Assembly (NCBI GenBank): GCA_963695975.1
Contig: CAVOIB010000002.1
Coordinates: forward strand, 589,855 to 653,854
DNA length: 64,000 nt
Reading direction: 5' to 3'
Origin: an uncultured Actinomycetes bacterium
Lineage (GTDB): Bacteria; Actinomycetota; UBA4738; HRBIN12
The number at the start of each line of letters is the position of its first letter. Positions within the stretch are counted from its first letter, which is position 1. Below the pieces are notes generated by a model. It saw only the letters and a list, made by a program, of their open reading frames with translations. It ran no database searches and was not told where the DNA came from. This document shows positions 37,424-56,219 of the stretch, piece by piece. A program made the position numbers and the translations under genes.

Positions 37424-37431
37424 AGCGGGTT

Positions 37432-40059: not shown

Positions 40060-41111
40060 CATACAGGATCGGGGTCATCCCCGGCGACGGGACCGGCCCC
40101 GAGGTCGTTCGCGAAGGGCTGAAGGTGCTCGACGCCGTCAAGGGCGTGGAGGGCTTCGACGTCGAGCTGGTCGAGTTCGACCTGGGCGGCGAGCGCTACC
40201 TGCGGACGGGGGACACGCTCCCCGACGACGAGCTCGCCCGGCTCCGTGAGATGCACGCCCTATTGCTGGGCGCCGTGGGGCATCCGGACGTCAGGCCGGG
40301 GATCCTGGAGCGGGAGCTGTTGCTGCGCGCACGGTTCGAGCTTGACCAGTACGTGAACCTCCGGCCGGTGATCCGCTACCCGGGCGTCGAGACGCTCGTG
40401 CCGTCACACACGGAGGACGACGTGAACATGGTGGTCGTCCGCGAGAACAGTGAGGGCCTCTACAGCGGGGCGGGCGGGTTCCACCGCAAGGGCACTCCCC
40501 ATGAGGTCGCCGTGCAGGAGTCGATCAACACCCGCCACGGCGTGGAGCGGATCGTCCGCTACGCGTTCGAACTCGCGATGCGCCCGGAGCGCCGCCGGAA
40601 GCTCACGCTCGTTCACAAGACGAACGTACTGACGTTCGCCGGCGATCTGTACCAGCGCGTGGTGGACGAGGTCGCCGCTGAATATCCGGAGGTGACGGCC
40701 GACTATGCGCACGTCGACGCCGCGTGCATCTACTTCCTGGATCAGCCGAGCCGGTTCGACGTGATCGTCACCGATAACATCTTCGGGGACATCATCACGG
40801 ACCTCGGAGCGATGATCCAGGGCGGCATGGGGGTCGCGGCCGGCGGCAACATCAACCCCGACGGCGTGAGCATGTTCGAGCCGATCGGCGGAACGGCGCC
40901 CGACCACGCCGGGAAGGCCACGATCAACCCGCTCGCGGCGATCGGCGCTGTTCGGCTGCTGCTGCTGCAGCTCGGCGAGGCGAATGCCGCCGGGCGCATC
41001 GACACGGGCATCCGGTTCGCGGCGTCGAAGATGTCGTCGATGCGGGCCGGTGAGATGGGGTACTCGACCCCGGAGGTCGGCGATCTCGTGGTGGAGGGAG
41101 CGACGGGATGA
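40056..41111 (+). CDS. leuB: 3-isopropylmalate dehydrogenase
   Basis: Isocitrate/IPM dehydrogenase signature NLFGDIITDLGA. GTG start overlaps the leuA stop. Confidence 0.9.
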   Translation: MTYRIGVIPGDGTGPEVVREGLKVLDAVKGVEGFDVELVEFDLGGERYLRTGDTLPDDELARLREMHALLLGAVGHPDVRPGILERELLLRARFELDQYVNLRPVIRYPGVETLVPSHTEDDVNMVVVRENSEGLYSGAGGFHRKGTPHEVAVQESINTRHGVERIVRYAFELAMRPERRRKLTLVHKTNVLTFAGDLYQRVVDEVAAEYPEVTADYAHVDAACIYFLDQPSRFDVIVTDNIFGDIITDLGAMIQGGMGVAAGGNINPDGVSMFEPIGGTAPDHAGKATINPLAAIGAVRLLLLQLGEANAAGRIDTGIRFAASKMSSMRAGEMGYSTPEVGDLVVEGATG

Positions 41112-42682
41112 AGGTCGAGCTCTACGACACCACGCTCCGCGACGGCGCCCAGGGCACGGGCCTGTCGTACTCGATCGAGGACCGCCTGCGGATCCTCCAC
41201 AAGATCGACCAGCTCGGTGTGCCGTACATCGAGGGCGGCTGGCCGGGCGCGAACCCGCGCGATACCGAGTTCTTCAAGCTCGCCACGAAGGAGACCCTGC
41301 AACACGCGGCGCTGACCTCGTTCGGGATGACGCGCAAGGCAGGTGAGCGCGCCGAGGACAGCGCGGTGCTCCGCGAGCTGCTCGACACCGGGACGGAGGT
41401 CGTCTGCCTGGTCGGCAAGTCCTGGGACCTGCACGTGACCGAGGCCCTCCGCACGGATCTCGACGAGGGCGTCGCCATGGTGCGGGACTCGATCGCGTTC
41501 CTCCGTGCGCAGGGCAGGCGGGTGTTCTTCGACGCGGAGCACTTCTTCGACGGCTACCGGAGCGATCCGGCGTTCGCGATGCGAGTGATCGAGGCGGCAC
41601 AGGAAGCCGGTGCCGAGCGGCTGGTCCTGTGCGACACGAACGGCGGCATGCTGCCGTTCGACGTGGCGCGGATCGTGGACGAGGTCGGCACGAGCGTCGA
41701 GACCCCACTCGGGATCCACGTGCACAACGATGCGGGGTGCGCGGTGGCCAACTCGCTCATCGCGGTGGAACACGGGGCCTTCCAGGTCCAAGGCGTGGTG
41801 AACGGCTACGGGGAGCGGACCGGCAACGCCGACCTGATCCCGGTCGCGGCGAACCTCGTGCTCAAGATGGGCGCGGACTGCCTTCCCGAGGGCGCTGTCG
41901 AGAGACTCACGGAGGTCGCGCACTACGTCGCCGAGGTGGCGAACGTGGCGCCCGACTCACACCAGCCCTACGCCGGGCGCTACGCGTTCACGCACAAGGC
42001 CGGGCTCCACGCCAGCGGCCTGGCGCGCCTGGAGGAGGCCTACGAACACGTGCCGCCGTCATCGGTCGGGAATCGCCGCGGCGTGGTGGCGAGCGACCTG
42101 GGCGGGGCGGCCACCCTCCAGATGAAGGCCGACGAGTTCGGCATCGAGGTGGCAGTTACCACGATCCCGGCGATCCTCACGGAGCTGAAGGAGCGCGAGT
42201 CCCGCGGCTACACGTTCGAGGTGGCCGACGCGTCGCTCGAGCTCCTGATGCGTCACGCGAGCGGGTGGCGGCAGCCGTTCTTCCGGATCGAGAGCTTCCG
42301 CGTGCATGTCGAGCAGCGTATGGACGATCAGGAAGAGGCGCTCGCCGAGGCCACCGTGAAGGTCATCACGAAGGGCACCCGTCACGTGGAGAGCGCCGAG
42401 GGTCACGGACCGGTGGGCGCGTTGGACAACGCTCTCCGCAAGGCGCTTTCGAACGAGTACCCAGCGCTCGACGACATGACGCTCGAGGACTACCGCGTCC
42501 GCGTGCTCGACGAGACCGTCGGCACGGGCGCGACGGTACGCGTGCTGATCGACACCTCGAACGGCGAGCGCGAATGGACCACCGTCGGGGTGTCGGAGAA
42601 CATCATCGAGGCGTCCTGGGAGGCGCTGGTCGACGCGTACCTCTACGGTCTCCTCCATCCTCGGGAGGACATCGAGGCGTGA
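41108..42682 (+). CDS. cimA: Second LeuA-family synthase, citramalate-synthase (CimA)-like
   Basis: 524 aa with the same HMGL barrel (YDTTLRDGAQ; HVHNDAGCAVANS) and a C-terminal LeuA_dimer-type domain. The architecture is typical of CimA-clade paralogs. Start overlaps the leuB stop. Confidence 0.7.
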   Translation: MKVELYDTTLRDGAQGTGLSYSIEDRLRILHKIDQLGVPYIEGGWPGANPRDTEFFKLATKETLQHAALTSFGMTRKAGERAEDSAVLRELLDTGTEVVCLVGKSWDLHVTEALRTDLDEGVAMVRDSIAFLRAQGRRVFFDAEHFFDGYRSDPAFAMRVIEAAQEAGAERLVLCDTNGGMLPFDVARIVDEVGTSVETPLGIHVHNDAGCAVANSLIAVEHGAFQVQGVVNGYGERTGNADLIPVAANLVLKMGADCLPEGAVERLTEVAHYVAEVANVAPDSHQPYAGRYAFTHKAGLHASGLARLEEAYEHVPPSSVGNRRGVVASDLGGAATLQMKADEFGIEVAVTTIPAILTELKERESRGYTFEVADASLELLMRHASGWRQPFFRIESFRVHVEQRMDDQEEALAEATVKVITKGTRHVESAEGHGPVGALDNALRKALSNEYPALDDMTLEDYRVRVLDETVGTGATVRVLIDTSNGEREWTTVGVSENIIEASWEALVDAYLYGLLHPREDIEA

Positions 42683-42699
42683 GTTTCGCGACTCGCCGC

Positions 42700-43923
42700 T
42701 CAGACGGGCGGGGAGGCTCGGCGGCTCGCCCACCGGACGATCGCATCCTCGATCTGGACCGCCTCGTCCTTGGTCATCCCCCGTGAGACGATCGAGAACT
42801 CGACCCAGTCGCCGATCTTGGCGGACCACACCCAGCCAGACAGGGCCGAGATCGCGTTCAACGTGCCCGTCTTCGCGCGCACGCGCAGATGGCCGAGCCG
42901 TTCCTCCAAGGTTCCCTGACCACCGGTTGGGAGCGCCCGCCGCAGATCCTTGGCCCACGGCTGTTCGTCGGCCACCCAGAGGAGCCGCACCATCCCCTGC
43001 GCGGTGATGCGATCCGCGTAGGAGAGCCCCGACGAATCGTGGTGCTCGAACTCCGGGGCTCCGTTCGCGGCGGTGTACGCGTCGATCGCCTCGGCGGCTT
43101 GGGCGATCGACCCGGTGCCTGAGGTCTCGGCGCCCAGGAGCTTCCCCAGCACTTCCGCATCGAAGTTGTTCGAGTCCACGTCCATGCGACGGACGATGTC
43201 GATCACTGGAGCGGAATCGACCGTCGCGATCCTCACGAGTTCCGAACCTGGCGAGCCCATCGCGGGATCGCCGTCGACGGCGACCCCCCGGCGACGGAGG
43301 CTCTTCGTCAGATACGCGGCGGCGCGCGCCTCCGGGTCGTCGATGTGCCGACCCTCCGGACCGACGTTGCCGCGGAACGTCAGCGCCGTCGGGAACGGAA
43401 CCTCGTCGGCGGTGAAGTAGTCCCTCCATCCCTTCGCCCACCAGTCGCGTTCGAACGGACCCGTATCGCCGATCACCGAGCCGGTGATCTGGGTGATCCC
43501 TGCGTCGACGATGGCCGAGGCGAGCGTGTCCAGGGTCGTGGGCAGAACCTCCGGGTCGCCGTGACCCTCGATCCACAGGTCACCCTCGAGCACGCCGCCG
43601 ACCGGCGGAGCGGCGGCCTTCGCGCGCGTGGCGATCACGTGATCCGGACCAACCGTCGAGAGCAGAGCCATCGACAGGAGCAGCTTCTCGTTCGATGCGG
43701 GGATCCGCCTCACCCAGCCCAGGTGGCGATACCAGAACGCACCGTCGTCGCCGATCGCGACGGACATCTGCCGGTCGCCGACGAGTGCATCGATCCGTTG
43801 CTGCCAGTCGGTCGCGGACGTCCGTCGCGCTGGGGGCGCTGCCGGGGACGCATGCGCGGTCGCGGCCGTAACGGTCAACATCGAACCGACGAGGAGGACG
43901 GCGGCGACGAGGCGGGTACGCAT
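42700..43923 (-). CDS. dacB: D-alanyl-D-alanine carboxypeptidase/endopeptidase (PBP4, peptidase S13)
   Basis: Signal peptide and an SxxK-like ASNEKLL motif, 407 aa. Confidence 0.75.
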   Translation of the reverse strand: MRTRLVAAVLLVGSMLTVTAATAHASPAAPPARRTSATDWQQRIDALVGDRQMSVAIGDDGAFWYRHLGWVRRIPASNEKLLLSMALLSTVGPDHVIATRAKAAAPPVGGVLEGDLWIEGHGDPEVLPTTLDTLASAIVDAGITQITGSVIGDTGPFERDWWAKGWRDYFTADEVPFPTALTFRGNVGPEGRHIDDPEARAAAYLTKSLRRRGVAVDGDPAMGSPGSELVRIATVDSAPVIDIVRRMDVDSNNFDAEVLGKLLGAETSGTGSIAQAAEAIDAYTAANGAPEFEHHDSSGLSYADRITAQGMVRLLWVADEQPWAKDLRRALPTGGQGTLEERLGHLRVRAKTGTLNAISALSGWVWSAKIGDWVEFSIVSRGMTKDEAVQIEDAIVRWASRRASPPV

Positions 43924-43972
43924 GATCGCTCGATGGTACGAGGTGGATCGACGGTCGCCCGGGAGCCGCCCG

Positions 43973-46900
43973 CTAGCGATCGTGAGCGAGCGCCTCAGCC
44001 TCGCGCTGCATCTCGGCCCGCTCCTCGAGCAGCGTGTTCAACGCGTGTGGTTCGAGCGGCCGGGCGAAGAGGAAGCCCTGTCCCAGGTCGCACTTCAGCT
44101 CCATCAGGCGTTCGAGCTGATCGGGGCGCTCGATCCCCTCGGCCACCGGTGTCAGATTGAGGATGCCCGCGAGCTCGATCACGGCTGCCGTGAGCGCCGA
44201 GGACTCCCCGCCCTCGCTCACCTCGTCGATGAAGGACTTGTCGACCTTCAAGATGTCTACGGGGAACCGTCGCACGTAGTTGAGCGAGGAATACCCGGTT
44301 CCGAAGTCATCGATCGCCAGCAGCACACCGAGCTGCTTCAGCTGCTTCAGCCGCTCGATCGCGAGCTCCATGTCCTGCATGACCATGCTCTCGGTGATCT
44401 CCAGGACCAGTGCTGATGGCTGCAACCTTGTCTCGTCGAGGAGATCCCGGACCTCGTCCACGATCTCCGGTCGCGCCAGCTGACGGGCCGACAGGTTGAC
44501 GGCCATGTGGAACGGCGGGTCCATCGGGAACCGGTCCTGCAGCTCGACCGCGTACCGTGCGGCCTGTTCGAGCACCCACCGGCCGATCGGCACGATCAGC
44601 CCCGTCTCCTCGGCGAGCGGGATGAACTCGAGCGGCTGGACCAACCCGCGCTCCGGATGGACCCAGCGGATCAGCGCCTCGACGCCGTTGATGCGCCCGG
44701 TTTCGAGCTCGATCACCGGTTGGTAGTGCAAGACGAACTCCTCGTGCTCGAGGGCGCGCTGCAGGTCCGCCTTCAACTCGAGGCGGCGGAGCGCCGTGTC
44801 GTGCATCTCGGGCTCGAACACCTGGTACCTGCCCTTGCCGCGCTCCTTGGCCATGTACATCGCCACGTCCGCGTTGCGGAGCAGTTCCTCCGCAGCGTCC
44901 TCGCCGGTCCCCGCCGTGCCGTCCGCGACCGCGATGCCGACGCTGGCTCGGACGAACACCTCCTTGCCCTCGAGCAGGAACGGCTCCTGGAGCATCTGCA
45001 TGATGCGTTCGGCGACGTCGGCGGCCTGGACTCCGTCGCCGCCATCCTCGAGCAGGATCGCGAACTCGTCGCCGCCCAAACGCGCGGCGGTATCGGCGGC
45101 GCGGAGCGTACCTTTCAAGCGTTCGCCGACCTCCGCTAGCAATCCGTCGCCCGCGGCGTGGCCGAGCGAGTCGTTGATCGTCTTGAAGTCGTCTAGGTCC
45201 ATGAACAGCACCGAGATCGGGCGTCGATCACGCTCCTGGCGTTCGATCGCGTGCAGGACACGGTCCCGGAAGAGCGCGCGGTTCGCGAGGTTCGTGATCG
45301 AATCGTGGAAGGCCTGGCGTTCGAGCTCCGCTTCGAACTGCTTGCGCTCGGTGATGTCTCGCGTGTTGAGGACGATGCCGCGCACGTTGGGGTCGTGGAG
45401 CAGGCTCGTGCGGAGCGTCTCGGTGAACAGGTACGACCCGCTCCGGTGGCGCAGGCGGAACTCTAGGAGGCTCGTGCTGCCCTCGCCCTCGATCGCAGAG
45501 GAGAGGAACGACAGGGCGCGTGTCTTGTCGTCGGGGTGGATCAGATCGATGAAGCGGCTCCCCTCCAACTCCTCGGGTTCGAACCCGAGGACGCGAGAGG
45601 CCGACGGACTGGCGTAGCGGACCACCGTGTCCGGCTCGATCACCGTCACGATATCGGAGGAGTTCTTCACCAGCGACGCGAACCGCGCCTCGCTCTGGCG
45701 GATCAGCAGGTCCTCGGTGAGCGCAGCGCTCTCCAAGGCGAGCGCGACCTGCGACGAGAGGGCCCGGAGGCTGTCGGTGACCGAGAGGCTCATCTCGAGC
45801 GGGGTCGCGACCACCATCAGGCCGCGGAACGCATCCCGCATGAAGATCGGGGCGACGAGCACCGACCCCTGGTCCTCGGGGGGGAGCGCCAGCGGATCAC
45901 GCAGGGTGCTCTCGTAGGACCTGACGACGTATGCGTCGCGCTCCATAAGCCGTTGTCGCTTCCATTCTTGCAGGACCGAGAACGACAGGTGCAGGCCAAG
46001 GACGTCGGCGGTTCCACCTTCGGCCGCCACCACGACCAGTTCGTCGGGTGCGTCGCCGACGACCTCGCAGAACCGTACCGCCGCATCCGCGCCGGCGAGC
46101 GTCCGTGCAGCCTCGATCGCCGCCTGGTGGATCGCATCGCGGTTCGTCGCCGTGACGAGGGCGAGCCCCGCCTCACGGAGCGCTCGCTCGCGCGCGGCCG
46201 ACTGCTCCTGTGTCCGAACCAGGCCGGCCATCCTCGCGATCACCAAGAGGAACAGCACCACGGAGGCGGCGATCACCACGAGCTCGTCGGTGCGTGCGAT
46301 AGCGGAGGCAGGCGTGTCCGCCAGGCGCGAGAGCAGCATCGCGCCGGTGATCGGGGCGATCAGCGACACGATCGCCAACACGACAAGCCGGAAACGAGAC
46401 AGCGCCCGGCGGACCTCGGTCGAGCGTTCGGAGAAGAGCTTCGATGCAGGATGCAGCGCCGCCGCGCCCAACAACAGGTAGAACGCGGCCCAGCCTCCCT
46501 CTAGGTAGCCCGTCTGGTTGTCGTATCCACCGTGCAGTCCGTACCAGCCGTAGATCGCGTCGGTCACGAACAGCGCCAACACCGCCGCGAGCACCAGATA
46601 GAAGGCGCCGCTGCGACGGCCGCCGCCGACCGCCAGACGGATCGCTCCCGTGATCAGCATCAGGTCGAACAGCGGGTAGCCCATCGATACCAGCTTCTGC
46701 AGCGAGGTGAGGGAGGAGTCGTGCGAGTAAGGCGCGATGAGGAACACCCACGAGAGGACCCCGACGCCGACCGCGACGATCAGCGAATCGATCATGCTGT
46801 CGCGGTCGCGGCCCGGGTTGCGGCGCCGCATCAGAAGGAGCATGCCCGCGAGCAGGCATGGGTAGACCGAGAGGTAGAACACGTCGCCGATCGACGGGTA

Positions 46901-47161
46901 GGGAAGCTCCGTGCCGAAGAACCGCTCGTAGTTGTACGTGATCACGTCGCCGGCCACGAAGAGGGCCTGGCCGAGCGCGATCAAGATCCACGGCAGCTTG
47001 TACTCCACGTGGTTCATGCGAAGCGCGATCAGGATCACGATCGGGGATGAGATCGCGATGAGGTTCAGTAGGGCGCCGATGCGCAGTCCCGGCACGGTGA
47101 GGAAGGCCACGGTCGTGATCGACCCCAGCAACAGGTACACGAGCCACGCTCGTGACTTCAT
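43973..47161 (-). CDS. Membrane sensor, GAF, PAS, GGDEF and EAL cyclic-di-GMP turnover protein
   Basis: N-terminal polytopic domain of ~290 aa. Intact GGDEF (RLGGDEF) and EAL (EALIRW...DDFGTGYSSL) motifs. 1062 aa. Confidence 0.85.
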   Translation of the reverse strand: MKSRAWLVYLLLGSITTVAFLTVPGLRIGALLNLIAISSPIVILIALRMNHVEYKLPWILIALGQALFVAGDVITYNYERFFGTELPYPSIGDVFYLSVYPCLLAGMLLLMRRRNPGRDRDSMIDSLIVAVGVGVLSWVFLIAPYSHDSSLTSLQKLVSMGYPLFDLMLITGAIRLAVGGGRRSGAFYLVLAAVLALFVTDAIYGWYGLHGGYDNQTGYLEGGWAAFYLLLGAAALHPASKLFSERSTEVRRALSRFRLVVLAIVSLIAPITGAMLLSRLADTPASAIARTDELVVIAASVVLFLLVIARMAGLVRTQEQSAARERALREAGLALVTATNRDAIHQAAIEAARTLAGADAAVRFCEVVGDAPDELVVVAAEGGTADVLGLHLSFSVLQEWKRQRLMERDAYVVRSYESTLRDPLALPPEDQGSVLVAPIFMRDAFRGLMVVATPLEMSLSVTDSLRALSSQVALALESAALTEDLLIRQSEARFASLVKNSSDIVTVIEPDTVVRYASPSASRVLGFEPEELEGSRFIDLIHPDDKTRALSFLSSAIEGEGSTSLLEFRLRHRSGSYLFTETLRTSLLHDPNVRGIVLNTRDITERKQFEAELERQAFHDSITNLANRALFRDRVLHAIERQERDRRPISVLFMDLDDFKTINDSLGHAAGDGLLAEVGERLKGTLRAADTAARLGGDEFAILLEDGGDGVQAADVAERIMQMLQEPFLLEGKEVFVRASVGIAVADGTAGTGEDAAEELLRNADVAMYMAKERGKGRYQVFEPEMHDTALRRLELKADLQRALEHEEFVLHYQPVIELETGRINGVEALIRWVHPERGLVQPLEFIPLAEETGLIVPIGRWVLEQAARYAVELQDRFPMDPPFHMAVNLSARQLARPEIVDEVRDLLDETRLQPSALVLEITESMVMQDMELAIERLKQLKQLGVLLAIDDFGTGYSSLNYVRRFPVDILKVDKSFIDEVSEGGESSALTAAVIELAGILNLTPVAEGIERPDQLERLMELKCDLGQGFLFARPLEPHALNTLLEERAEMQREAEALAHDR

Positions 47162-47215
47162 GGAGGTTGTATCGTCCCGCTCCCGGCCGACCCTTAGTAC
47201 GCAGGGAGCCGCGCG

Positions 47216-48514
47216 TTAGACGTCGGCCGTATGGGGGACGTGGGCGAGGTCCTCGGACCGTTCGACCGAACGCATCCCGGGCAGGAACAAGAACGAGAAC
47301 GTCACGATGGCCCCCAGGATCCCCGCACCGACGAGCGTGGCTCGCGCGCCGATGGCACTGGCCACGGGGCCGGTGAGCGCGTATGAGACGGGCAGGAGGC
47401 CGATCGACACGAACCAGTCGAGGCTCGATACCCGGCCAAGGAGCTGACGCGGGACCAGGCGCTGCTTCGTCGTCGCCCACACGATCGTGCCCGCCGTCTC
47501 GAGCGCGTTGAACAGGAAGCACGCGAGCATGGCCTGCCACGGCAGGTGCGCCAATCCGTAGCCGGCGACCGCGAGCGTGGACAGTGTCCAGGCGACGTAC
47601 ATGAACGTGATGAACTTCCGAGGTGCTCCGCGGTGCCCCATGATCAAGGCTGCGCCGATCGCGCCGACCCCGCCCATCGCCAGGATGATCCCGAGCGTGA
47701 GTGGGTTGCCTCCCCAGTCGGTCTTGACCAACAACGGCAACAGGACCTCCTGGGGACCGATGAACAAGAGATAGGCGAACGTCGCCGCGAGAAGGGTGCC
47801 CCACAGCCACACACGCGCGCGCACGAAGCGGAACCCTTCACGCACGTCTTCGAATGCGGTCCCGCTGCCGTCGAGGGGTGCATCGAGCGGGTGCGGACTC
47901 ATCATCAGCAGCGCGACGATCGAGGCACCGAACGTCGCGGCATCCATCAGGAACGCGCCACCGACGCTCCACCCCACGAGGGCCCCGCCGAGGGCGGGGC
48001 CGAGCAGGCGCCAGGCGGCCGGCCTGACGAACTGGTCGACCGAGTTCGCCTGGGTGAGCAGGTCGGATGCGACCAGATCGGGGACGATCGCGTCGAACGC
48101 CGGACCGAAGAACGCGGTCCCGCCTCCGTAGATCGCGGCGAGGACCATGAGGTGCCAGAGCTCGATGTGCCCCGTCAGCGAGAGCCATCCCATCGCGGCG
48201 ACCGACAGCCCGCGAACCAGGTCGGCGAGCAGCAGCACCCGGCGTCGGTCGAAGCGATCGCTCACGACGCCACCAGCCAGCAGGAAGATCACGTGGGGGA
48301 TGGTCATCGCCAGACCGACGAGCGAAAGGGCGGTCGGCGTGTCCGAGAGCTCGTACACCTGCCAGGCGAGGGCCACCAGGAAGATGCCGTCGCCGATCAG
48401 CGAGATGGTCATGCCCGACCAGAGCAGTCGGAAGTCGCGGTGTCGAAGCGGTTCGAGGATGACCGGGAGTCGCCGGCGCGACCTGCTCGGCTTCCCCTCT
48501 GGATCGGACCTCAT
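47216..48514 (-). CDS. MFS transporter
   Basis: Twelve TM segments. Start trimmed to MRSDPEG because the 490-aa track ORF overlaps the histidine-kinase gene. Confidence 0.75.
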   Translation of the reverse strand: MRSDPEGKPSRSRRRLPVILEPLRHRDFRLLWSGMTISLIGDGIFLVALAWQVYELSDTPTALSLVGLAMTIPHVIFLLAGGVVSDRFDRRRVLLLADLVRGLSVAAMGWLSLTGHIELWHLMVLAAIYGGGTAFFGPAFDAIVPDLVASDLLTQANSVDQFVRPAAWRLLGPALGGALVGWSVGGAFLMDAATFGASIVALLMMSPHPLDAPLDGSGTAFEDVREGFRFVRARVWLWGTLLAATFAYLLFIGPQEVLLPLLVKTDWGGNPLTLGIILAMGGVGAIGAALIMGHRGAPRKFITFMYVAWTLSTLAVAGYGLAHLPWQAMLACFLFNALETAGTIVWATTKQRLVPRQLLGRVSSLDWFVSIGLLPVSYALTGPVASAIGARATLVGAGILGAIVTFSFLFLPGMRSVERSEDLAHVPHTADV

Positions 48515-48581
48515 CGACCCCATCGACCTCTCTGTGTCGGCCGGCGTCCAGACCGGGCCCTTTCCGACTTCCCCCGAACGA

Positions 48582-50741
48582 CTACGCGGGTCCGAAGGTG
48601 TCGACGGCGGCCGGGACGAGTCCACGTTGCGGTTCGCCGTCGTCCCCTGTCCCCGCGTCGCCCTCTCCCGCGGAGGGGAGATAGACACGGAACGAGGCCC
48701 CGCCGCCTTCCCGCTCCTCGACCCACGCCCGCCCGCCGTGGAGCTCGGCGAACCGAGTCACGAGCGAGAGGCCGATGCCGACGCCCGGGTTGTGACGGAC
48801 GACCTCGTTCCCCTGGCGGAACGGTTCGAAGATCGAGTTGCGGATGTCTTCAGGGACGCCAGGCCCAGCGTCCTCCACCAGGATGAGCACGCCGCTCGCG
48901 TCCTCGCTCGCACCGACCCAGATCGGCGTACCGGGGGGTGTGTAGCGGATCGCGTTCGCGACGAGGTTCTCGACGATCCGTTCGACCTGTGCCGCATCGA
49001 CGTTCGCGGGAACGGGATCGGTCACGGTGAGCTCGATCGGATGGCTATCTGAGGCCGTTTCCTGGAGGACCCGAGCGAGGATCTGTGTCATGTCCACGTG
49101 GGCGCGGTTGGGTGCCACGATGCCGCGGGACATGCGGTCGAGGTCGAGCAGGTTCGTCAGCAGGCGGTGGAGCTTGCGGGCGTTGGCTGCGATACGCCCG
49201 ACCAGGTCGTGCTCGTCCTCCCGGGAGATCTGCTCGCGGCCGAGGCTCCCCTCCAGCGTCAGGGCGCAGCCGAGGATGCTGGTGAGCGGCGTCCGAAGGT
49301 CGTGAGACACGGCCTGCAGGAACGAGTTCTGCATCTCGTGGAGCGCTCGAAGACGCGTGGCGGCCTCCTTCTCGGCGTCGAGCGCCTTGACCAGCTGGGC
49401 TTCGGCCTGCTTCTGCTCAGTGACGTCGTACATCACGCCCTGCAGGCTGACCGGCCGTCCGGTCTCGTCCTCGAGCGCCTCTGCCTCCTCGTGGATCCAG
49501 ATCACCTGGCCGTCCTTGCCGACGATCCGATACTCACAGGCCATCCGGGGCTCGCCGTTCAGCAGCCGGAGTTCGGCGTCCAACGCGCGCTCGCGATCCT
49601 CGGGGAGGATGCGCTCACGCCACAGTTCCGCCTGTCCTGTCCATTCATCCTGACTGAAGCCGAGGATCGATTCGATCTTCGGGCTGATGTAGCGCCACGC
49701 CGCATCCTTGCCGAACTCGGCGATGTAGACGACGGCCGGAAGGCCTTCGACGAGCGACCGGTACTTCGCCTCGGCTTCGCGCAGCTGCCGCTCCGCCCTG
49801 CGGTACTTCCCGATGTCGACCATCAGGCCGTTCAGCCGTACCAAGACCAGGACGAACAGCACGGCGGAGGCGCCGGCGAGGACGGCGACGTCGACGTTGT
49901 CGCCTCGGAGTGCCTGGATCACGAGGACCGTCGGCGCGATCAGTGACGCCCCGGCCAGCAACGCGAGGCGCCGGCGAGGGTGCGCCAGGTCGCCCTCGGG
50001 CGTGGGTTCGTCGAGGTTCGCCATCGAGGGGTGCAGGGCCGCTGCCCCCCACAACAGGTAGAAGAAGCCCCAGCCCAACTCGAGGAGCCCGGTCGAGTTG
50101 TCGTACGACCCGTGCAGCAGGATCCACGTGTAGATCGTGTCGGTGGTGAAGAGCACCGTGATCGAGGCGATCATCAGGTAGAACGCGGGGGGCCGGCGTC
50201 CGCGGCCGACCGCGAGGCGTACCGCTACGCCGAACAACAGCATGTCCATGATGGGGTAGGCCATCGAGGTCAGCTTCTGGATCAGCGGGATCGATTGGTC
50301 GTGCGCGTAGGGGGCCAGCAGGAAGACCCAAGAGAGCGTCCCGACCCCGATGGCGATGATCAGCGAGTCGATGAGACTGGCGCGGTCGCGGCCGGGGCTG
50401 CGCCGACGAACCAGCAGCAACACTCCGGCGATCAGCGGGGGATAGACGCTCAGGTAGAGCAGGTCGCCGATCGACGGGAACGGCGGCGCGGTCCCGAAGA
50501 AGCGCTCGTAGTTGTACGTGATCACATCGCCGGCGACGAAGAGCGTCTGCCCGATCGCGAAGAGGTACCAGGGCAGACGCTGGCGAGGTTCGTGCAGCCT
50601 CGCCGCGATGACGATGGCGATCGGTGCTGAGAGTCCGATCAGGTTGAACAGTGGGCCGACGCGGATCGGGTGGACGAACACGAACGCGGTAAGCACCGCG
50701 CCGCCGATGGTCAGGTAGAGGGCCCACGCCCGAGCTTTCAT
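48582..50741 (-). CDS. Membrane sensor, PAS and histidine kinase (orphan)
   Basis: Same N-terminal polytopic domain as the 43973..47161 protein. HisKA H-box SHDLRTPL; HATPase N, G1 and G2 boxes. No response regulator is adjacent. Confidence 0.85.
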   Translation of the reverse strand: MKARAWALYLTIGGAVLTAFVFVHPIRVGPLFNLIGLSAPIAIVIAARLHEPRQRLPWYLFAIGQTLFVAGDVITYNYERFFGTAPPFPSIGDLLYLSVYPPLIAGVLLLVRRRSPGRDRASLIDSLIIAIGVGTLSWVFLLAPYAHDQSIPLIQKLTSMAYPIMDMLLFGVAVRLAVGRGRRPPAFYLMIASITVLFTTDTIYTWILLHGSYDNSTGLLELGWGFFYLLWGAAALHPSMANLDEPTPEGDLAHPRRRLALLAGASLIAPTVLVIQALRGDNVDVAVLAGASAVLFVLVLVRLNGLMVDIGKYRRAERQLREAEAKYRSLVEGLPAVVYIAEFGKDAAWRYISPKIESILGFSQDEWTGQAELWRERILPEDRERALDAELRLLNGEPRMACEYRIVGKDGQVIWIHEEAEALEDETGRPVSLQGVMYDVTEQKQAEAQLVKALDAEKEAATRLRALHEMQNSFLQAVSHDLRTPLTSILGCALTLEGSLGREQISREDEHDLVGRIAANARKLHRLLTNLLDLDRMSRGIVAPNRAHVDMTQILARVLQETASDSHPIELTVTDPVPANVDAAQVERIVENLVANAIRYTPPGTPIWVGASEDASGVLILVEDAGPGVPEDIRNSIFEPFRQGNEVVRHNPGVGIGLSLVTRFAELHGGRAWVEEREGGGASFRVYLPSAGEGDAGTGDDGEPQRGLVPAAVDTFGPA

Positions 50742-50807
50742 CGCACTCTCGATATCGGGATGCTGGGACGGAGACCTTAGGGTGTAGCAGGCTGCGATCG
50801 AGCGCGA

Positions 50808-52109
50808 TCAGGGGGTGGTGCCGATGGTCTGGCGGAGCTGGAACCGATCGCGGAGCGTTCCCAGGACCGAGATCAGATGGTCGATCTCCTCGGGGGTGTT
50901 GGCCGCGGTCACCTGGATCCGGAACCCGACCTCGTCCTTCGGGACGAGCGGATACGCCGCCATCGTCACGTAGATCCCTTGGTCGTAGAGGTATCGACCG
51001 ACCTCGTCGATCTCGTCGTGGTCGGCGAGCGACACCTCGATGATCGGGAACCCGCTCTCGTTCGGCGTGCGGATCCCCAAGCGATCGAGCGCGTCCAGCA
51101 CGCGGTGGGTCATCTCCCACATCGTGAACCGCGCGAGGTCGCCGCGCCTGCGGTTCACCTCGAGGCCGGCGATCGTCGTGGCGAGCGAGGCGACGGGCGA
51201 TGGCCCCGAGTAGAGGTACGGCGGCGCGAGTACCTTCAGCGCGTCCTTCAACCTCGTCGGGAGCGCCATGAAGGCCAGGAGCGAGGAGTACGACTTCGAG
51301 AATCCGGCCACCATCACGACGTGTTCATAGCCGACGCCTTGGTGACGGAAGACGCTGTTCCCCTTGGTGCCGTAGTCGCAAAGCTCGTCCGGCGAGCGCT
51401 CGCCGATGACGCCGAACCCATGGGCATCGTCCAGGTAGAGCAGCGCGTCGTGCGCGCAGGCGATGCGGGCGAACTCCCCGACGTCGGGCGCGTTGCCGGT
51501 CATCGAGTTGACCCCGTCCATGGCGATCACGCGGGGCAGGCCTGGGTCGCTCGCGGTGATGAGCTCCTCCAGGTGCGCCGCGTCGTTGTGTCGGAATCGG
51601 ACGACCTGTGCTCCGTGACCTGCGGCGACCATGGCGCCGTCGTAGATCGTCTTGTGGGCGCGCCCGTCCAGGAATACCGTGCCGTCGCCGACCAGCACGG
51701 GGATCGTCGACATGTGGATGTGGGTGATCGTCGGGAGCAGGAGCACGTCCTCGCAGACGAGGAGGTCGGTCATCTCCTCCTCGATCTCCTCGTAGAGCCG
51801 TGGGCTGCCGAGGAGTCGCGACCAGCTGGGGTGGGTTCCCCACTTCGCCAGATAGTCGGGGACCGCGGCGATGATCTCCTCGTCCAGGTCGAACCCCAGG
51901 TAGTTGCACGAGGCGAAGTCGGTGAGCCAATGATCGCCGATCCTGATCTTCCGGCCGACCTGTTCGTCGATCACGGCATCCACCATCGGGTGCTCGTGCT
52001 TCAGACGGGTGAGATCGGAGGTCGTGGCGACCCAGCGGTCAAGCCAGCCGTCACCCTGCCGCCTGCGCGGCTTGCCGTTCGGGGACGGCTCCACCTGGGC
52101 ATCCGACAT
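50808..52109 (-). CDS. Alpha-oxoamine synthase family PLP enzyme (BioF/serine-palmitoyltransferase-like)
   Basis: Fold-type I with PLP lysine context VMVAGFSKSY and DDAHGFGVIG. Start taken as MSDAQ; the ORF begins at 52220. Confidence 0.75.
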   Translation of the reverse strand: MSDAQVEPSPNGKPRRRQGDGWLDRWVATTSDLTRLKHEHPMVDAVIDEQVGRKIRIGDHWLTDFASCNYLGFDLDEEIIAAVPDYLAKWGTHPSWSRLLGSPRLYEEIEEEMTDLLVCEDVLLLPTITHIHMSTIPVLVGDGTVFLDGRAHKTIYDGAMVAAGHGAQVVRFRHNDAAHLEELITASDPGLPRVIAMDGVNSMTGNAPDVGEFARIACAHDALLYLDDAHGFGVIGERSPDELCDYGTKGNSVFRHQGVGYEHVVMVAGFSKSYSSLLAFMALPTRLKDALKVLAPPYLYSGPSPVASLATTIAGLEVNRRRGDLARFTMWEMTHRVLDALDRLGIRTPNESGFPIIEVSLADHDEIDEVGRYLYDQGIYVTMAAYPLVPKDEVGFRIQVTAANTPEEIDHLISVLGTLRDRFQLRQTIGTTP

Positions 52110-52327
52110 CCGGCGTCGGATCTGCCCTCGGGGTCTGCCGTTCGACGCTCCGTTATCGGTCGACGGGAGTTCCATGGAATACCCACATCGGCGCATCCCC
52201 ACGCCGACTTGAAGGGGCACGGGGGGTGACTCCGCCCCCGTCCATCTGGGGGAGTCCGTCTGGTGGTGCGCCCGGCCTCGCCGTAGACTCGGCCCTTCCG
52301 CGAGGCCGAAGACGATGGGGGAGCGCG

Positions 52328-53686
52328 GTGCGCGCGATCGACCGGTCGAGGATCCACGACCTGATGGAGCGTGAGCGGCAGACGTTCCGTGAACGGCATC
52401 CTCGATGCGGTGCGCTGGCGGAGGAGGCCAAGGCCTCGCTCCTCTACGGCGTGCCGATGAACTGGATGGTCCGCTGGCCGGGCGACTGGCCGGTGTTCGT
52501 CGATCGGGCGGAGGGCGCGCGCTTCACGGACGTCGACGGGAACACCTACGTCGATCTCTGCCTCGGTGACACCGGCGGCATGGCCGGACACGCGCCGAAG
52601 GCCGCGGTCGAGGCGATCGCCGAGCAGGCCGCCCGTGGGATCACGCTGATGCTCCCGACCGAGGACGCGGCGTGGGTGGGCTCGGAGATGGCTCGGCGCT
52701 TCGGTCTCCCGTACTGGCAATTCTGCCTGACGGCGACCGACGCGAACCGCTTCGTGATCCGTTGGGCGCGGGAGGTCACCGGCCGTCCGAAGATCGTCGT
52801 GCATAACTGGAACTACCACGGCTCGGTCGACGAGACGTTCGCGCGGTTGGACGACGGCGGAAACGTCCGGGCCCGCGAGGGCTTGGTTGGGCCGCCGGTC
52901 CCGTTGGACGTGACGACCAAGGTGGTTGAGATCAACGACCTCGATGGTCTGGAGGCCGTCTTGAGGGCGGGCGACGTGGCATGTTGCCTCTTCGAGCCCG
53001 CGCTCACGAACATCGGGATCGTCCTGCCCGATCCGGGCTACCACGACGGCGTCCGCGACCTGTGCTCGAGGAACGGGACGCTCCTCGTGATCGACGAGAC
53101 CCACACGATCTGCGCCGGCCCTGGCGGATGCACGAAAGCGTGGGGTCTCCGCCCGGACATCGTGACGATCGGTAAGACGCTCGGCGCGGGGATCCCGAGC
53201 GCCGCCTACGGCATGACCGAAGACGTGGCGCGCCGGATCGTGGAGCACACCGACTTCCAGCACATCGACGTCGGCGGCACGGGCGGGACGCTCGCCGGGA
53301 ACGCCCTATCGTTCGCCGCGATGCGGGCGACGCTCGGTCAGGTCCTCACCGACGAGGCGTTCGTGCAGATGATCGCGCTCGGCGAACGGTTCGAGCGCGG
53401 TGTGGCGGATGTCATCGCGTCGCGCGAGCTGCCGTGGCATGTGACGCGTCTTGGGTGCCGAGTGGAGTACCTGTTCCGGCCGGATGCGGCCAGGAGCGGC
53501 GCTCAAGCGGCGGCCGGGCAAGACGAAGAGCTCGATCCCCTGATCCATCTCTACCTGTTGAACCGAGGGATCTTGATCACCCCGTTCCACAACATGGCGC
53601 TGATGTCCCCGGCGACGACCGCCCAGGATGTGGACGCGCACACCGAGACGTACGCGCAAGCTGTCGACGAGCTGGTGGGAGGTTGA
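52328..53686 (+). CDS. Class-III (GSA/BioA-like) aminotransferase
   Basis: PLP lysine TIGKTLGAG, VIDETHT and HNWNYHGS motifs. Start uncertain: GTG at 52328 or ATG at 52364. Confidence 0.75.
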   Translation: MRAIDRSRIHDLMERERQTFRERHPRCGALAEEAKASLLYGVPMNWMVRWPGDWPVFVDRAEGARFTDVDGNTYVDLCLGDTGGMAGHAPKAAVEAIAEQAARGITLMLPTEDAAWVGSEMARRFGLPYWQFCLTATDANRFVIRWAREVTGRPKIVVHNWNYHGSVDETFARLDDGGNVRAREGLVGPPVPLDVTTKVVEINDLDGLEAVLRAGDVACCLFEPALTNIGIVLPDPGYHDGVRDLCSRNGTLLVIDETHTICAGPGGCTKAWGLRPDIVTIGKTLGAGIPSAAYGMTEDVARRIVEHTDFQHIDVGGTGGTLAGNALSFAAMRATLGQVLTDEAFVQMIALGERFERGVADVIASRELPWHVTRLGCRVEYLFRPDAARSGAQAAAGQDEELDPLIHLYLLNRGILITPFHNMALMSPATTAQDVDAHTETYAQAVDELVGG

Positions 53687-53688
53687 CC

Positions 53689-54057
53689 GTGACCGACGCG
53701 AGGATCGCGTACGTGCTGCTGGATTCCACCGACCCTGCCGCACTCGTCCCGTTCTGGACCGAGCTGCTTGGAGTGGGGGTCGCGGCGACCGTGGACGAGG
53801 GGGCCTTCGTGGTGTTGGATGCCGCGGCCGACGGCCCCCCCGCGCTCGCGTTCCAGCGCGTCCCTGAGTCGAAGTCGGGGAAGAATCGCATGCACCTCGA
53901 CCTGGTCGTGGACGACCTGGAAGCTGCGACCCAGCGGATCACCGAGATGGGCGGCGTCTGGCTCGACGGCGAGACGCGCGAGATCGGCGGCTACCGCTGG
54001 CGGTGCATGGCCGACCCCGAGGGTAACGAGTTCGACATCGTTCCGGACGACAACTAG
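53689..54057 (+). CDS. VOC/glyoxalase-family protein
   Basis: 122 aa. Metal-ligand pattern MHLDLVVDD and C-terminal PEGNEFDIV. GTG start 2 nt after the aminotransferase stop. Confidence 0.65.
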   Translation: MTDARIAYVLLDSTDPAALVPFWTELLGVGVAATVDEGAFVVLDAAADGPPALAFQRVPESKSGKNRMHLDLVVDDLEAATQRITEMGGVWLDGETREIGGYRWRCMADPEGNEFDIVPDDN

Positions 54058-54072
54058 TCTGGGATAGACTAG
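54054..54072. repeat. Palindrome CTAGTCT-GGGAT-AGACTAG (copy 3 of 3)
   Basis: Contains the TAG stop of the VOC gene on the + strand and the TAG stop of serC on the - strand. Confidence 0.6.
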
Positions 54073-55172
54073 CCTGCGGTCGCAGCGAAATCCCACATGA
54101 AGTCGGCGAGCGCTCGCGCCCCCTCGATGGGCATGGCGTTGTAGATGGAGGCACGGATCCCGCCGACGCTCCGGTGCCCCTTCAGTTCGGCCATGCCGCG
54201 GGCGGCCGACTCCGCCACGAAGCGACGTTCGTGCGCCTCGTCGGGCAGCCGGAACGTGACGTTCATGAGGGAGCGCGATCCCGCCCGCGCATGGCCTCGA
54301 TAGAAGCCCTCGCTCCCATCGATCGCGTCGTAGATCAAGCCCGCCTTCTCACGGTTGATGGCGAGCTGCGCCTCGAGGCCGCCAACATCGTCCTTCAGCC
54401 AGCGCGTGACGAGCGTCAGCACGTAGATCGCGAACACCGGTGGCGTGTTGTGCATGGATGCCGATGTGGCGTAGGTGCGGTAGTCGAGCATCGTCGGCAG
54501 CCCGTCGGGCACACGATCGAGCATATCTTCGCGAACGACCGCCACGGTGACGCCGGCCGGTCCGGCGTTCTTCTGCGCGCCCGCGTAGAGCACGCCGTAC
54601 GGCTTCAGGTCCACGGGCCGCGAGAGGAAGTCGGATGATGCGTCGCAGACCAGTGGCACGCCATCGGGAACTGCGGGTGTGTCGGGGAACTCGACGCCCT
54701 GGATGGTCTCGTTCGACGTGACGTGGACGTAAGCGGCCGCGTCGTCGAGGACAGCGCCGAGCTCCTCGTCACCGGGCACGCGGACGAACCCCTCGGCCTT
54801 CCCGGACCACACCCGGCGGACCGGACCCTCGCGTTCGGCTTCGACGACGGCCTTCTCGCTCCAGGTCCCGGTCACGACGTGATCGGCGGACCGCGGGCGG
54901 CCTCGGAGCAGGTTCATCGCGACCATCGAGAACTGCAGCGTGGCGCCGCCTTGACAGAACAGGACGTGATGGCTGTCGGGGATCGACAGCAGCGCCCGGA
55001 GGTTCGCCTCGGCCTCCCCGATCACGCCCTCGAACCACGGGCTGCGATGCGAGACCTCGAGGGGTGAGGCGCCGAGCCCAGGGAGCGAGATCAGGTCGCG
55101 CTGCACCTCCTCGAGAACCTTGAGCGGAAGGATCGCCGGTCCGGCAGAGAAGCTGTAGACGCGGTCGCTCAT
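54069..55172 (-). CDS. serC: Phosphoserine aminotransferase
   Basis: Class-V aminotransferase, 368 aa. FSAGPA N-terminus and PLP lysine context GAQKNAGPAG. The 461-aa track ORF was trimmed. Confidence 0.85.
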   Translation of the reverse strand: MSDRVYSFSAGPAILPLKVLEEVQRDLISLPGLGASPLEVSHRSPWFEGVIGEAEANLRALLSIPDSHHVLFCQGGATLQFSMVAMNLLRGRPRSADHVVTGTWSEKAVVEAEREGPVRRVWSGKAEGFVRVPGDEELGAVLDDAAAYVHVTSNETIQGVEFPDTPAVPDGVPLVCDASSDFLSRPVDLKPYGVLYAGAQKNAGPAGVTVAVVREDMLDRVPDGLPTMLDYRTYATSASMHNTPPVFAIYVLTLVTRWLKDDVGGLEAQLAINREKAGLIYDAIDGSEGFYRGHARAGSRSLMNVTFRLPDEAHERRFVAESAARGMAELKGHRSVGGIRASIYNAMPIEGARALADFMWDFAATAG

Positions 55173-55214
55173 CCAGGACCAGGGTATCGTGACTCCCCGT
55201 TCGAAAGGCTCGAC

Positions 55215-56219
55215 ATGGCGTACAAGCGGATCTTGTTCGGCACCGATGGTTCGGCGTCCGCCCGGGCCGCTGGCGCGGTCGCCGCAGCTCTTGCGAAGGC
55301 AGGCAAGGCGCAACTGATCGTTGCGTGCGCGTTCGCCAAACCGACCGACGCGGAACGCGTGGTCGCCGCCGGCGTCGAGGAGGCGGAGGCGGCCGGTGTC
55401 CGCCGGGTCGAGGGGGAGAGCCGCGCCGGCCTCCCGGCCGACGCGTTGATCCAACTTTCGGACGAGCGCGATGTCGGATTGCTGGTCGTCTCGGGCGGCA
55501 GCGGCGGCAAGGGGCTCGGATCGGTGGCGAATCGGCTCGCCTTGCGTTCTCCTCGAGACGTCCTTCTGGTGATCGGCTCGGCGTCGACGGACGCGGATGC
55601 GCCGGTCTATCGACGGGTGGTGATCGCGACCGACGGTTCATCCACGGCGGATCGCGCCGCGCGCAAGGGATACGAGCTCGCCGAGACGCTAGGCGTGCCG
55701 GTCACGATCGTCTTCGTCGGGCACCCGAAGACGGGCGAGCTCGTGACGCAGGACACGATCGCGACGTATGCGGGTGAGGTGCCGACCGACGTGATGCTCC
55801 GAGAGGGACAGCCTGCGGCGCAGATCCTGGCGGCCGCCGACGAGGCGGACGCGGGCGTGGTGGTCGTCGGGAACAAGGGGATGACGGGCGCCAAGGGATT
55901 CCTGCTCGGATCCGTGCCGCAAGAGGTGGCCGAGGGATCCACCCGAGACGTGCTGATCGCCCGCACGGTCACGCAGATCGTCTCCGATCTCTCGCGGGGT
56001 GAGGGTGGGATCGTCGAGCGCGCAGGCGAGAAGATGGCCGTCTTCGTCGACGATGCTGGTGAACTCCACGTGATGAGCGCGCGCTGCACGCACATGGGAT
56101 GCACGGTCGCATGGAACCCGGGGGAAGGGACGTTCGATTGTCCCTGTCACGGGTCGCGGTTCGGCCCGATTGGCGATGTCGTGAACGGCCCGGCGGCGCG
56201 TCAGCTTCCGCCCGCCTGA
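55215..56219 (+). CDS. Tandem universal-stress-protein (UspA) domains fused to a C-terminal Rieske [2Fe-2S] domain
   Basis: Two Usp ATP-binding folds (VVVGNKGMTGAKGFLLGSV). C-terminal box I CTHMGC and box II CPCHGS. Confidence 0.7.
   Translation: MAYKRILFGTDGSASARAAGAVAAALAKAGKAQLIVACAFAKPTDAERVVAAGVEEAEAAGVRRVEGESRAGLPADALIQLSDERDVGLLVVSGGSGGKGLGSVANRLALRSPRDVLLVIGSASTDADAPVYRRVVIATDGSSTADRAARKGYELAETLGVPVTIVFVGHPKTGELVTQDTIATYAGEVPTDVMLREGQPAAQILAAADEADAGVVVVGNKGMTGAKGFLLGSVPQEVAEGSTRDVLIARTVTQIVSDLSRGEGGIVERAGEKMAVFVDDAGELHVMSARCTHMGCTVAWNPGEGTFDCPCHGSRFGPIGDVVNGPAARQLPPA

Follow-up and report, generated by a model that had tools for sequence, protein, structure and literature searches.

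Membrane-embedded sensor domains are, to our knowledge, the least understood inputs of bacterial signalling, almost none of them having a known ligand, and the shuffling of sensors between kinases and enzymes of cyclic di-GMP (c-di-GMP) turnover is a well-known theme. Here we analyse a 64-kb stretch of contig CAVOIB010000002.1 from an uncultured bacterium of the Actinomycetota (the window; coordinates are window positions throughout), in which a histidine kinase and a diguanylate cyclase/phosphodiesterase (DGC/PDE) share one polytopic N-terminal sensor domain, and in which the two sensor genes are clustered with genes for an alpha-oxoamine synthase (AOS) and a transporter of the major facilitator superfamily (MFS).

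The MASE1-12 domains were defined by Galperin and colleagues as membrane domains shared by proteins with different outputs (bioRxiv 10.1101/2021.11.05.467447). Like the domain described here, they are polytopic and poor in loops, and they stand N-terminal to histidine kinases and GGDEF/EAL proteins, with many outputs in all. MASE5, the only one that recurs weakly among relatives of the window sensor, has been reported in enterobacterial GGDEF proteins (PMC7232144), whereas the window sensor family is mainly actinobacterial; moreover, its profile has 192 positions, as against ten helices and approximately 310 residues in the window domain.

A second parallel is offered by the systems built on CqsA and LqsA, which are pyridoxal-phosphate (PLP) enzymes, and on the membrane-bound receptor kinase CqsS (PMC3376566; PMC3285556). 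In CqsA/CqsS and LqsA/LqsS, as in the window, the gene of an AOS-family PLP synthase lies beside that of a membrane-embedded kinase without a periplasmic domain. The window system differs from them in several respects: its AOS is not orthologous to theirs, its sensor has ten transmembrane (TM) segments and a membrane part without a match to the curated kinase models, the putative signal would also be received by a c-di-GMP enzyme, the cluster includes an MFS exporter, and the host is a Gram-positive-type actinobacterium.

Within the Actinomycetota, the window DGC/PDE aligns along 1050 residues, TM domain included, with a protein from a Kitasatospora plasmid (WP_331731062.1), the two being co-linear and 38% identical; the clade that the plasmid protein typifies differs in lacking the D72/YNY/FFG loop signature described below and in having no AOS or MFS neighbour in six contexts. 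Streptomyces CdgF is described as a membrane protein of the composition 10TM-PAS-PAC-GGDEF-EAL with conserved GGDEF and EAL residues (PMC6205966), and its possible likeness to the window DGC/PDE, in the ten TM segments and the GGDEF-EAL output, is one of description only. What is new here is a very large sensor family that has no Pfam or NCBIfam model and carries a sharp, invariant intramembrane signature, together with the genetic coupling of one of its clades to an orphan AOS and an exporter, which supplies a testable hypothesis for the source of the ligand.

The sensor domain and its output modules

The preliminary description of this DNA had placed two reading frames with related N-termini on the minus strand, and both were recovered there with the N-termini quoted (Table 1). 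It had judged the two sequences co-linear at roughly 55% identity by eye; co-linearity holds, and the measured identity is higher, as BLASTP aligns residues 1-270 of the kinase and the DGC/PDE without gaps (163 identities of 270, 60%; 74% positives; E 9e-106), and the N-terminal regions are thus genuinely paralogous members of a single polytopic sensor family. The PAS domains of the same two proteins are 31% identical (E 4e-11). The similarity of the sensors goes well past generic TM hydrophobicity, the trivial explanation that the preliminary description had named, since 23 columns are invariant among 31 diverse family members.

The Pfam assignments bear out the proposed architectures, GAF-PAS-GGDEF-EAL in one protein and PAS-HisKA-HATPase in the other with an MFS gene between them, and hence the reading of the two genes as a domain-shuffling pair, with different outputs on one sensor family. 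In the DGC/PDE, a weak GAF_3 match (residues 342-477, 22 bits against a cut-off of 27) is followed by PAS (493-608), GGDEF (617-777, 155 bits) and EAL (798-1035, 257 bits) domains. The catalytic GGDEF motif at residue 696 and an I-site of the RxxD type (RAAD at 687, five residues upstream of GGDEF) are intact, as is the EAL set (EALIR 828, DDFGTG 951, KVD 972, EGIE 1008, QGFLF 1028), and the protein is predicted to be able both to make and to hydrolyse c-di-GMP. In the kinase, the sensor is followed by PAS_3 (351-437), HisKA (471-539, 44.4 bits) and HATPase_c (582-690, 92.9 bits), and all sequence boxes are present: H (HDLRTP, 480), N (NAIRY, 596), G1 (DAGPG, 624), F (FEPF, 638) and G2 (GVGIGL, 653).

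The kinase had been described as lacking a cognate response regulator, and this was upheld. Searches by tblastn with CheY, PhoB, NarL and OmpR detected no receiver domain in the 64-kb window (best E 0.19); the test is valid, because the same queries did match receivers elsewhere, in related loci, with E values of 1e-10 to 1e-29. Among the nine loci with an orthologous kinase and the full cluster, eight have no receiver within 8 kb on either side, and the exception, L014, has a NarL-type gene several kilobases downstream. The kinase is thus a conserved orphan.

Hydropathy analysis (Kyte-Doolittle) revealed ten hydrophobic segments in both proteins, and not about eight TM helices as originally counted. 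In agreement with this, an AlphaFold2 model of the DGC/PDE sensor, built on a 31-sequence alignment (pLDDT 88.5, pTM 0.87), contains ten long helices (residues 2-22, 29-49, 56-76, 91-114, 120-147, 153-178, 185-209, 219-236, 256-280 and 287-311), with two short extra helices in loops. Lysine and arginine residues of the predicted cytoplasmic and extracytoplasmic segments number 17 versus 2 in the DGC/PDE and 16 versus 2 in the kinase. The positive-inside rule is therefore clear and gives an N-in/C-in topology, and since both termini are cytoplasmic, TM10 runs straight into the cytoplasmic GAF/PAS modules. The extracytoplasmic loops, at most 14 residues long, are too short to accommodate a periplasmic domain for ligand binding.

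Conservation peaks in TM3-TM8 and in the loop between TM3 and TM4, where the paralogues are 52-81% identical and column conservation in the family is 0.55-0.75; TM1, TM2, TM9 and TM10 are more variable. Fourteen residues are conserved at a level of at least 0.83 in three sequence sets (W58, P89, D93, Y96, Y100, P101, D125, P144, Y162, P163, D166, D201, W224 and H237), and acidic and aromatic residues are unusually dense inside the TM helices or at their ends. Both paralogues carry all residues invariant in the family and share the loop between TM3 and TM4 (79% identical), which makes it plausible, judging from the sequences, that both proteins sense the same signal, as had been proposed. It is very likely that a shared intramembrane sensor feeds the two outputs. 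A Foldseek search with the sensor model returned nothing at E<=1e-3; for receptor-like folds with seven TM helices (GPCR class C, microbial rhodopsins, 7TMR-DISM) identities were 6-12% and TM-scores at most 0.43, a likeness of helical-bundle topology that is no evidence of homology.

Both window sensor domains lack a Pfam-A match at E<=10 except noise (DUF4231, E 7.8), and the N-terminal 300 residues lack an NCBIfam match at E<=1 except noise. An assignment to a MASE-type family, which the preliminary description had suggested checking by profile search, was thus not borne out, relatives alone giving sub-threshold matches to MASE5. Among 1.84 billion cluster representatives (50% identity), the family profile matched 14,622 at E<=1e-3, of which 9,091 reached E<=1e-10 and 2,347 reached E<=1e-30. 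Domains found in 61 full-length representatives include HATPase_c (26), HisKA (22), HisKA_3 (4), GGDEF (25), EAL (17), Response_reg (8) and Hpt (2), with PAS domains in about 35, and the output types comprise HisKA and HisKA_3 kinases, hybrid kinases with receiver and Hpt domains, and GGDEF and GGDEF-EAL proteins. In some members, for instance P0119, P0370 and P0327, the TM domain is joined directly to GGDEF or HisKA_3, without PAS or GAF between them. Being integral to the membrane, without a large periplasmic part and N-terminal to several unrelated outputs, the domain is in kind a MASE-type sensor.

MASE5 (PF17178) is the sole recurrent weak Pfam signal among the relatives, found in 6 of the 31 domain sequences at E<=10 (best E 0.011) and in one of the 61 full-length representatives (E 1.4e-4). 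Three inspected matches, all below the gathering score (11-14 bits versus 25.2), are co-linear, residues 59-181, 66-181 and 70-232 corresponding to profile positions 4-120, 10-118 and 2-150 of 192; they cover the core TM3-TM6 and in one case extend through TM8. Because the weak matches are co-linear, homology of TM3-TM8 to MASE5 is possible, and this core may be distantly related to MASE5, with four helices in addition.

The family is found mostly in Actinomycetota, both in uncultured lineages (including Solirubrobacterales, Gaiellaceae and Acidimicrobiia) and in Kitasatospora, Streptomyces, Streptosporangiaceae, Nocardiopsaceae, Pseudonocardiales and Actinoplanes; partial matches to the domain core occur in Deinococcus and in the haloarchaeon Haladaptatus. 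On a Haladaptatus plasmid (NZ_CP119784, locus L081, 5031-6527), a histidine kinase with a HAMP domain is 33% identical to the TM2-TM6 core over residues 36-184 (E 2e-8), so the sensor family crosses the boundary between bacteria and archaea. A large part of the database entries for the family (among P0001-P0120, P0019 and P0132) are frameshifted or truncated gene calls with tails rich in Arg, Pro and Ser, and such defective calls may help to explain the missing curated model.

Linkage of the sensor genes to an alpha-oxoamine synthase

The most informative neighbour of the sensor genes, overlooked in the preliminary description, is the AOS gene directly upstream of the kinase gene. The order AOS, sensor-PAS-histidine kinase, MFS exporter, sensor-GAF-PAS-GGDEF-EAL and a gene of the PBP4 type is co-directional throughout. 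The gaps of this run are only 49-66 nt, among them 66 nt from the AOS stop to the kinase start, 58 nt from the kinase stop to the MFS start and 49 nt from the DGC/PDE stop to the PBP4 gene, and the run is therefore consistent with a single operon.

We surveyed the linkage from the sensor side, in 79 genome loci encoding 89 relatives of the sensor genes, and from the AOS side, in 80 metagenome loci that encode AOS orthologues (69-94% identity), 37 of these loci having at least 3.5 kb of downstream sequence. On the sensor side, nearly all loci with enough upstream sequence have an AOS gene upstream on the same strand, 51-182 nt from the sensor gene if the two are directly adjacent and farther away if an MFS gene or kinase and MFS genes lie between them. 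The full arrangement AOS-kinase-MFS-DGC/PDE was found in L001, L003-L005, L008, L013-L015 and L026; other loci have the AOS gene followed by MFS and DGC/PDE genes with a TPR-like open reading frame (ORF) before the MFS gene, or by kinase and MFS genes, or by the DGC/PDE gene directly. The position of an MFS gene between the two sensor genes, noted from the window, proved to be a conserved feature across related loci, most sensor-side loci having the MFS gene downstream of the AOS or kinase gene and upstream of the DGC/PDE gene. The reverse survey found a sensor-domain ORF in 29 of the 37 informative AOS-side loci and an MFS gene in 17. Hence the genetic linkage of an AOS-family PLP synthase to a membrane-embedded sensor kinase is seen from both sides, and one clade of uncultured Actinomycetota shows tight linkage of the sensor gene with an AOS gene and usually with an MFS gene.

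Eleven divergent loci (L044, L047, L064, L065, L069, L071, L077, L079, L023, L045 and L051) encode sensors about 48-60% and AOS proteins about 62-79% identical to those of the window. In these loci, strong co-located homologues of window ORFs are limited to the AOS and the sensor protein, in some cases joined by the MFS transporter; other matches to window ORFs are distant paralogues at 28-36% identity. Since the divergent loci share AOS and sensor and differ in other neighbours, the pairing outlasts the wider synteny. Gene order varies, with sensor-AOS-MFS in L114/L115 and an inverted AOS gene in L068. The same adjacency is visible in chimeric gene calls on other contigs, P0019 (MFS tail and sensor) and P0132 (AOS tail and sensor). 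An AOS lead suggested by the NCBI name 'aminotransferase class I/II, partial' of P0257 (Kitasatospora sp. NPDC093558, L082) was rejected, as this sequence consists purely of sensor and GAF; the contig has an MbtH/AMP-binding gene upstream and no aminotransferase gene, and the name is probably an annotation artefact that looks transferred from a chimeric AOS-sensor gene call. In six contexts of the Kitasatospora/Streptomyces type, neither an AOS nor an MFS_3 neighbour was found.

The AOS-linked clade has a signature of its own at the end of TM3 and in the following loop, G-D72-x3-Y76-N-Y78-x2-F-F82-G83, in which D72, Y76, Y78, F82 and G83 are 91-100% conserved. Members of the Kitasatospora-type clade mostly have Q, L, L, L and H at these five sites, yet retain the residues that are invariant across the family. 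Of the two motifs that had been put forward as defining the sensor family, the YLSVYP type (D93, Y96, Y100, P101) therefore stands, whereas YNYERFFG is limited to the AOS-linked clade; from its distribution in the alignment, the latter is the mark of the subfamily linked to the AOS and a candidate determinant of specificity.

Co-resident sensors of the kinase and DGC/PDE types are 51-68% identical in nine genomes, whereas the orthologues in L001-L005 match the respective window paralogue at 74-85% identity, and thus the duplication predates the divergence of these genomes. We compared the phylogeny of the sensors with their outputs, as the preliminary description had advised. Neighbour-joining grouped the majority of kinase-linked sensors in a single clade that lies within the DGC/PDE-linked ones, a pattern which suggests that a DGC/PDE-type sensor was duplicated and then fused to a PAS-kinase module, likely in a single fusion event. 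A clean separation of kinase-type and DGC-type sensors was rejected, as the kinase-linked sensors of L014 and L026 fall elsewhere in the tree. A different duplication outcome in the same sensor family is seen in L074 (8001-14403 of a metagenome-assembled chromosome), where two sensor-GAF-PAS-GGDEF-EAL genes with sensors 64% identical lie in tandem, and AOS, MFS and kinase genes are absent nearby.

The AOS belongs to Pfam Aminotran_1_2 (E 8e-25) and to the alpha-oxoamine synthases, the family of BioF, Kbl and serine palmitoyltransferase. Its best matches in the PDB are enzymes of the AONS/KBL type (8s1y/7poa, E 1e-39), then bacterial serine palmitoyltransferases (E 1e-32), KBL, ALAS and AONS. 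It scores below all NCBIfam equivalog cut-offs (bioF TIGR00858, 175.9 versus 426; serine palmitoyltransferase, 170 versus 500; CqsA-type NF005526, 82.8 versus 428). An assignment as a CqsA/LqsA orthologue was rejected on the last of these scores and on the match to CqsA itself (PDB 2wk7), which reaches 43.6 bits (E 1.7e-10) compared with 139.5 bits for an AONS/KBL-type enzyme. A BioF/BioA pair formed by the AOS and the neighbouring class-III aminotransferase was likewise rejected, on the bioF score and because BioA is outside the 25 best families of the aminotransferase.

The transporter matches Pfam MFS_3 (PF05977) at 144.7 bits against a cut-off of 27 and MFS_1 at 92.6 bits. In NCBIfam its scores stay below the cut-offs for Tet(V) (261 versus 640 bits), TIGR00900 (225 bits) and EntS (130 versus 324), and it has a weak match to LplT (E 2e-7), likewise under the cut-off. 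Identification as Tet(V), EntS or LplT was accordingly rejected; judged by these similarities, the protein is of an exporter type, DHA3/EntS/Tet(V)-like.

Possible origin of the cue and competing explanations

We favour a model, with a probability of about 0.4, in which an intramembrane sensor module with two outputs responds to a cue that is possibly an amine or lipid made by the AOS and exported by the MFS transporter; the ligand is inferred. The cue would be perceived inside the bilayer or at its outer leaflet by the ten-helix domain, and the signal would pass through TM10 and a cytoplasmic helix to the GAF/PAS domains and then to the outputs. One cue could in this way drive two parallel responses, phosphotransfer to an unlinked response regulator and the synthesis or breakdown of c-di-GMP. 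The likeliest candidate for the cue is an amphipathic alpha-amino-ketone, or an amine or lipid derived from it, which the AOS would form out of an acyl-thioester and an amino acid; the divergently transcribed class-III aminotransferase might modify the product, and the MFS transporter would export it. The result would be a self-made signal loop following the logic of CqsA/CqsS with components that are not orthologous. That the AOS product is the ligand is a tentative part of this model. Its most specific form is doubtful, namely a self-signalling module not recognised before, present in a clade of uncultured Actinomycetota, in which the orphan AOS and the aminotransferase make a membrane-active signal of the amino-ketone or diamine type, the MFS transporter exports it, the duplicated ten-helix receptor drives a phosphorelay and c-di-GMP turnover, and the D72/YNY/FFG loop determines specificity.

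Several observations weigh against deriving the ligand from the AOS. The enzyme is not an orthologue of CqsA or LqsA by the scores given above. Eight of the 37 AOS-side loci have no sensor, seven sensor loci (L055, L070, L074, L076, L060, L049 and L040) have no AOS gene, and most of the wider sensor family evidently lacks the link. As all linked loci belong to one broad clade, the AOS link is confounded by phylogeny, and so is the correlation of the YNYERFFG signature with it. The MFS gene is missing from many AOS-sensor pairs, and export by the cluster transporter therefore cannot be essential. The true sites of input could be the GAF and PAS domains in the cytoplasm. The link as such is an argument of guilt by association, drawn from gene neighbourhoods.

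The alternative that survives best, though we consider it rather unlikely, is that the ten-helix domain monitors the state of the membrane or envelope (lipid composition, packing, cell-wall or lipid-linked intermediates), and that the AOS gene is adjacent as part of a co-regulated envelope set comprising an AOS like serine palmitoyltransferase, an MFS transporter or LplT-like flippase, and PBP4. The same invariant residues are kept in the many family members without an AOS neighbour, those of the Kitasatospora/Streptomyces type and others, and the loops are too short for a pocket for a soluble ligand. The greater proximity of the AOS to serine palmitoyltransferases than to CqsA, the weak LplT match of the transporter and the PBP4 gene downstream of the DGC/PDE gene point the same way. 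However, the clade-specific change at the end of TM3 and in loop 3 tracks the AOS link, which fits ligand specificity better, and in distant loci the linkage of PBP4 is lost while that of the AOS is kept.

Transporters that act together with sensors are known from the pairs DcuB-DcuS, BceAB-BceS and UhpC-UhpB, and the ten-helix domains might similarly contact the MFS transporter and read its transport cycle, a form of flux sensing that would suit the place of the MFS gene between both window sensor genes, beside the sensor gene in most related loci and within 17 of the 37 AOS-side loci. We regard this as improbable, because in eight of the divergent loci (L044, L047, L064, L065, L069, L071, L077 and L079) the AOS gene is directly paired with the sensor-DGC/PDE gene and no MFS gene lies within 8 kb on either side; since many AOS-sensor loci are of this kind, the sensor works without the cluster transporter. 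Just as improbable is a role of the ten-helix domain mainly as membrane anchor or dimerisation scaffold, with signals that need not be common perceived by the cytoplasmic PAS domains of both proteins (which, being only 31% identical, may receive different inputs) and the GAF domain of the DGC/PDE, for a mere anchor would not keep about 12 invariant polar or aromatic TM residues over more than 14,000 clusters, and some members have no PAS or GAF domain between the TM domain and the output.

If the favoured derivation of the cue from the AOS is true, the system represents a new receptor family and a new class of actinobacterial signal joining two-component and c-di-GMP signalling, and the residue pattern could guide the prediction of ligands for thousands of members in Streptomyces and related genera. 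If it is false, the sensor is still a well-delimited new MASE-like domain that deserves a database model.

Gene layout and neighbouring features

The features of the cluster are collected in Table 1. Two of the gene starts call for comment. The longest MFS ORF (47216-48688) extends into the 3' end of the kinase gene, and by homology with L003 the start is probably the ATG at 48523; the true start of the AOS gene likely lies at about 52106 (MSDAQVE...).

Table 1. Positions of the sensor cluster and adjoining genes in the window
Feature	Position	Strand	Basis and remarks
Class-III aminotransferase, PRK07046 subfamily	52226-53686	+	NCBIfam NF005453; divergent from AOS gene
AOS-family PLP enzyme (alpha-oxoamine synthase)	50808-52220	-	Pfam Aminotran_1_2, PDB matches; first gene of co-directional cluster
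Histidine kinase, 719 aa	48582-50741	-	ORF and Pfam
Kinase 10-TM sensor domain, residues 1-315	49797-50741	-	60% identity to DGC/PDE sensor
Kinase cytoplasmic part	48582-49796	-	PAS_3 49431-49691, HisKA 49125-49331, HATPase_c 48672-48998 (Pfam)
MFS_3/DHA3-like exporter, 435 aa from ATG at 48523	47216-48523	-	Pfam
DGC/PDE protein (sensor-GAF-PAS-GGDEF-EAL), 1062 aa	43973-47161	-	ORF and Pfam
DGC/PDE 10-TM sensor domain, residues 1-315	46217-47161	-	AlphaFold model, hydropathy, Lys+Arg counts
DGC/PDE cytoplasmic part	43973-46216	-	GAF-like 45731-46138, PAS 45338-45685, GGDEF 44831-45313, EAL 44057-44770 (Pfam)
PBP4-type D-Ala-D-Ala carboxypeptidase/endopeptidase	42700-43923	-	Pfam Peptidase_S13; last co-directional gene

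The PBP4 protein scores above the cut-off of its NCBIfam model (TIGR00666, 141.8 versus 107.8 bits), but its gene is more loosely linked, being found downstream of the DGC/PDE gene only in closer relatives. The class-III aminotransferase also exceeds its cut-off (653.5 versus 425 bits); it belongs to a little-studied subfamily and is a possible tailoring enzyme. Its divergent pairing with the AOS gene occurs in the sensor-side loci L001, L014, L054, L059, L066 and L067, and also in L084-L086, L089-L093, L095, L096, L099, L101-L103, L106 and L107. The pairing recurs in closer relatives and bears a superficial likeness to bioF/bioA, neither gene reaching biotin equivalog scores.

The plus-strand ORF 48147-49052 passed the GC3 filter, yet was discarded as a shadow of the minus-strand genes. 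An Rfam scan of 42000-54500 gave nothing credible, and promoter and terminator matches were not above the shuffled expectation. In many related loci the TPR-like ORF mentioned above, approximately 230 aa long, follows the AOS or kinase gene and precedes the MFS gene (5847-6542 in L009, about 5860-6552 in L003); it is absent from the window, where only the 58-nt gap separates the kinase and MFS genes.

Beyond the aminotransferase, the plus-strand ORF 55215-56219 encodes universal stress protein domains followed by a C-terminal Rieske [2Fe-2S] domain; it shares its 5' part with an oppositely oriented serC-like gene (54069-55454), which makes its true start uncertain. A second MFS_3 transporter (33110-34453, minus strand), a paralogue of the cluster transporter that lies 13 kb away and is 27-29% identical to it, adjoins genes for an APH/choline-kinase-like protein (32100-33026) and a DAO-FAO_M-GCV_T oxidase (29665-32247). 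Convergent with the sensor operon is a branched-chain amino acid cluster on the plus strand (35118-42682), which contains ilvB, ilvN, one unscanned ORF, leuA-like and leuB-like genes, and a second gene like leuA/cimA; in many related loci this cimA-like gene holds the same position beside the sensor operon.

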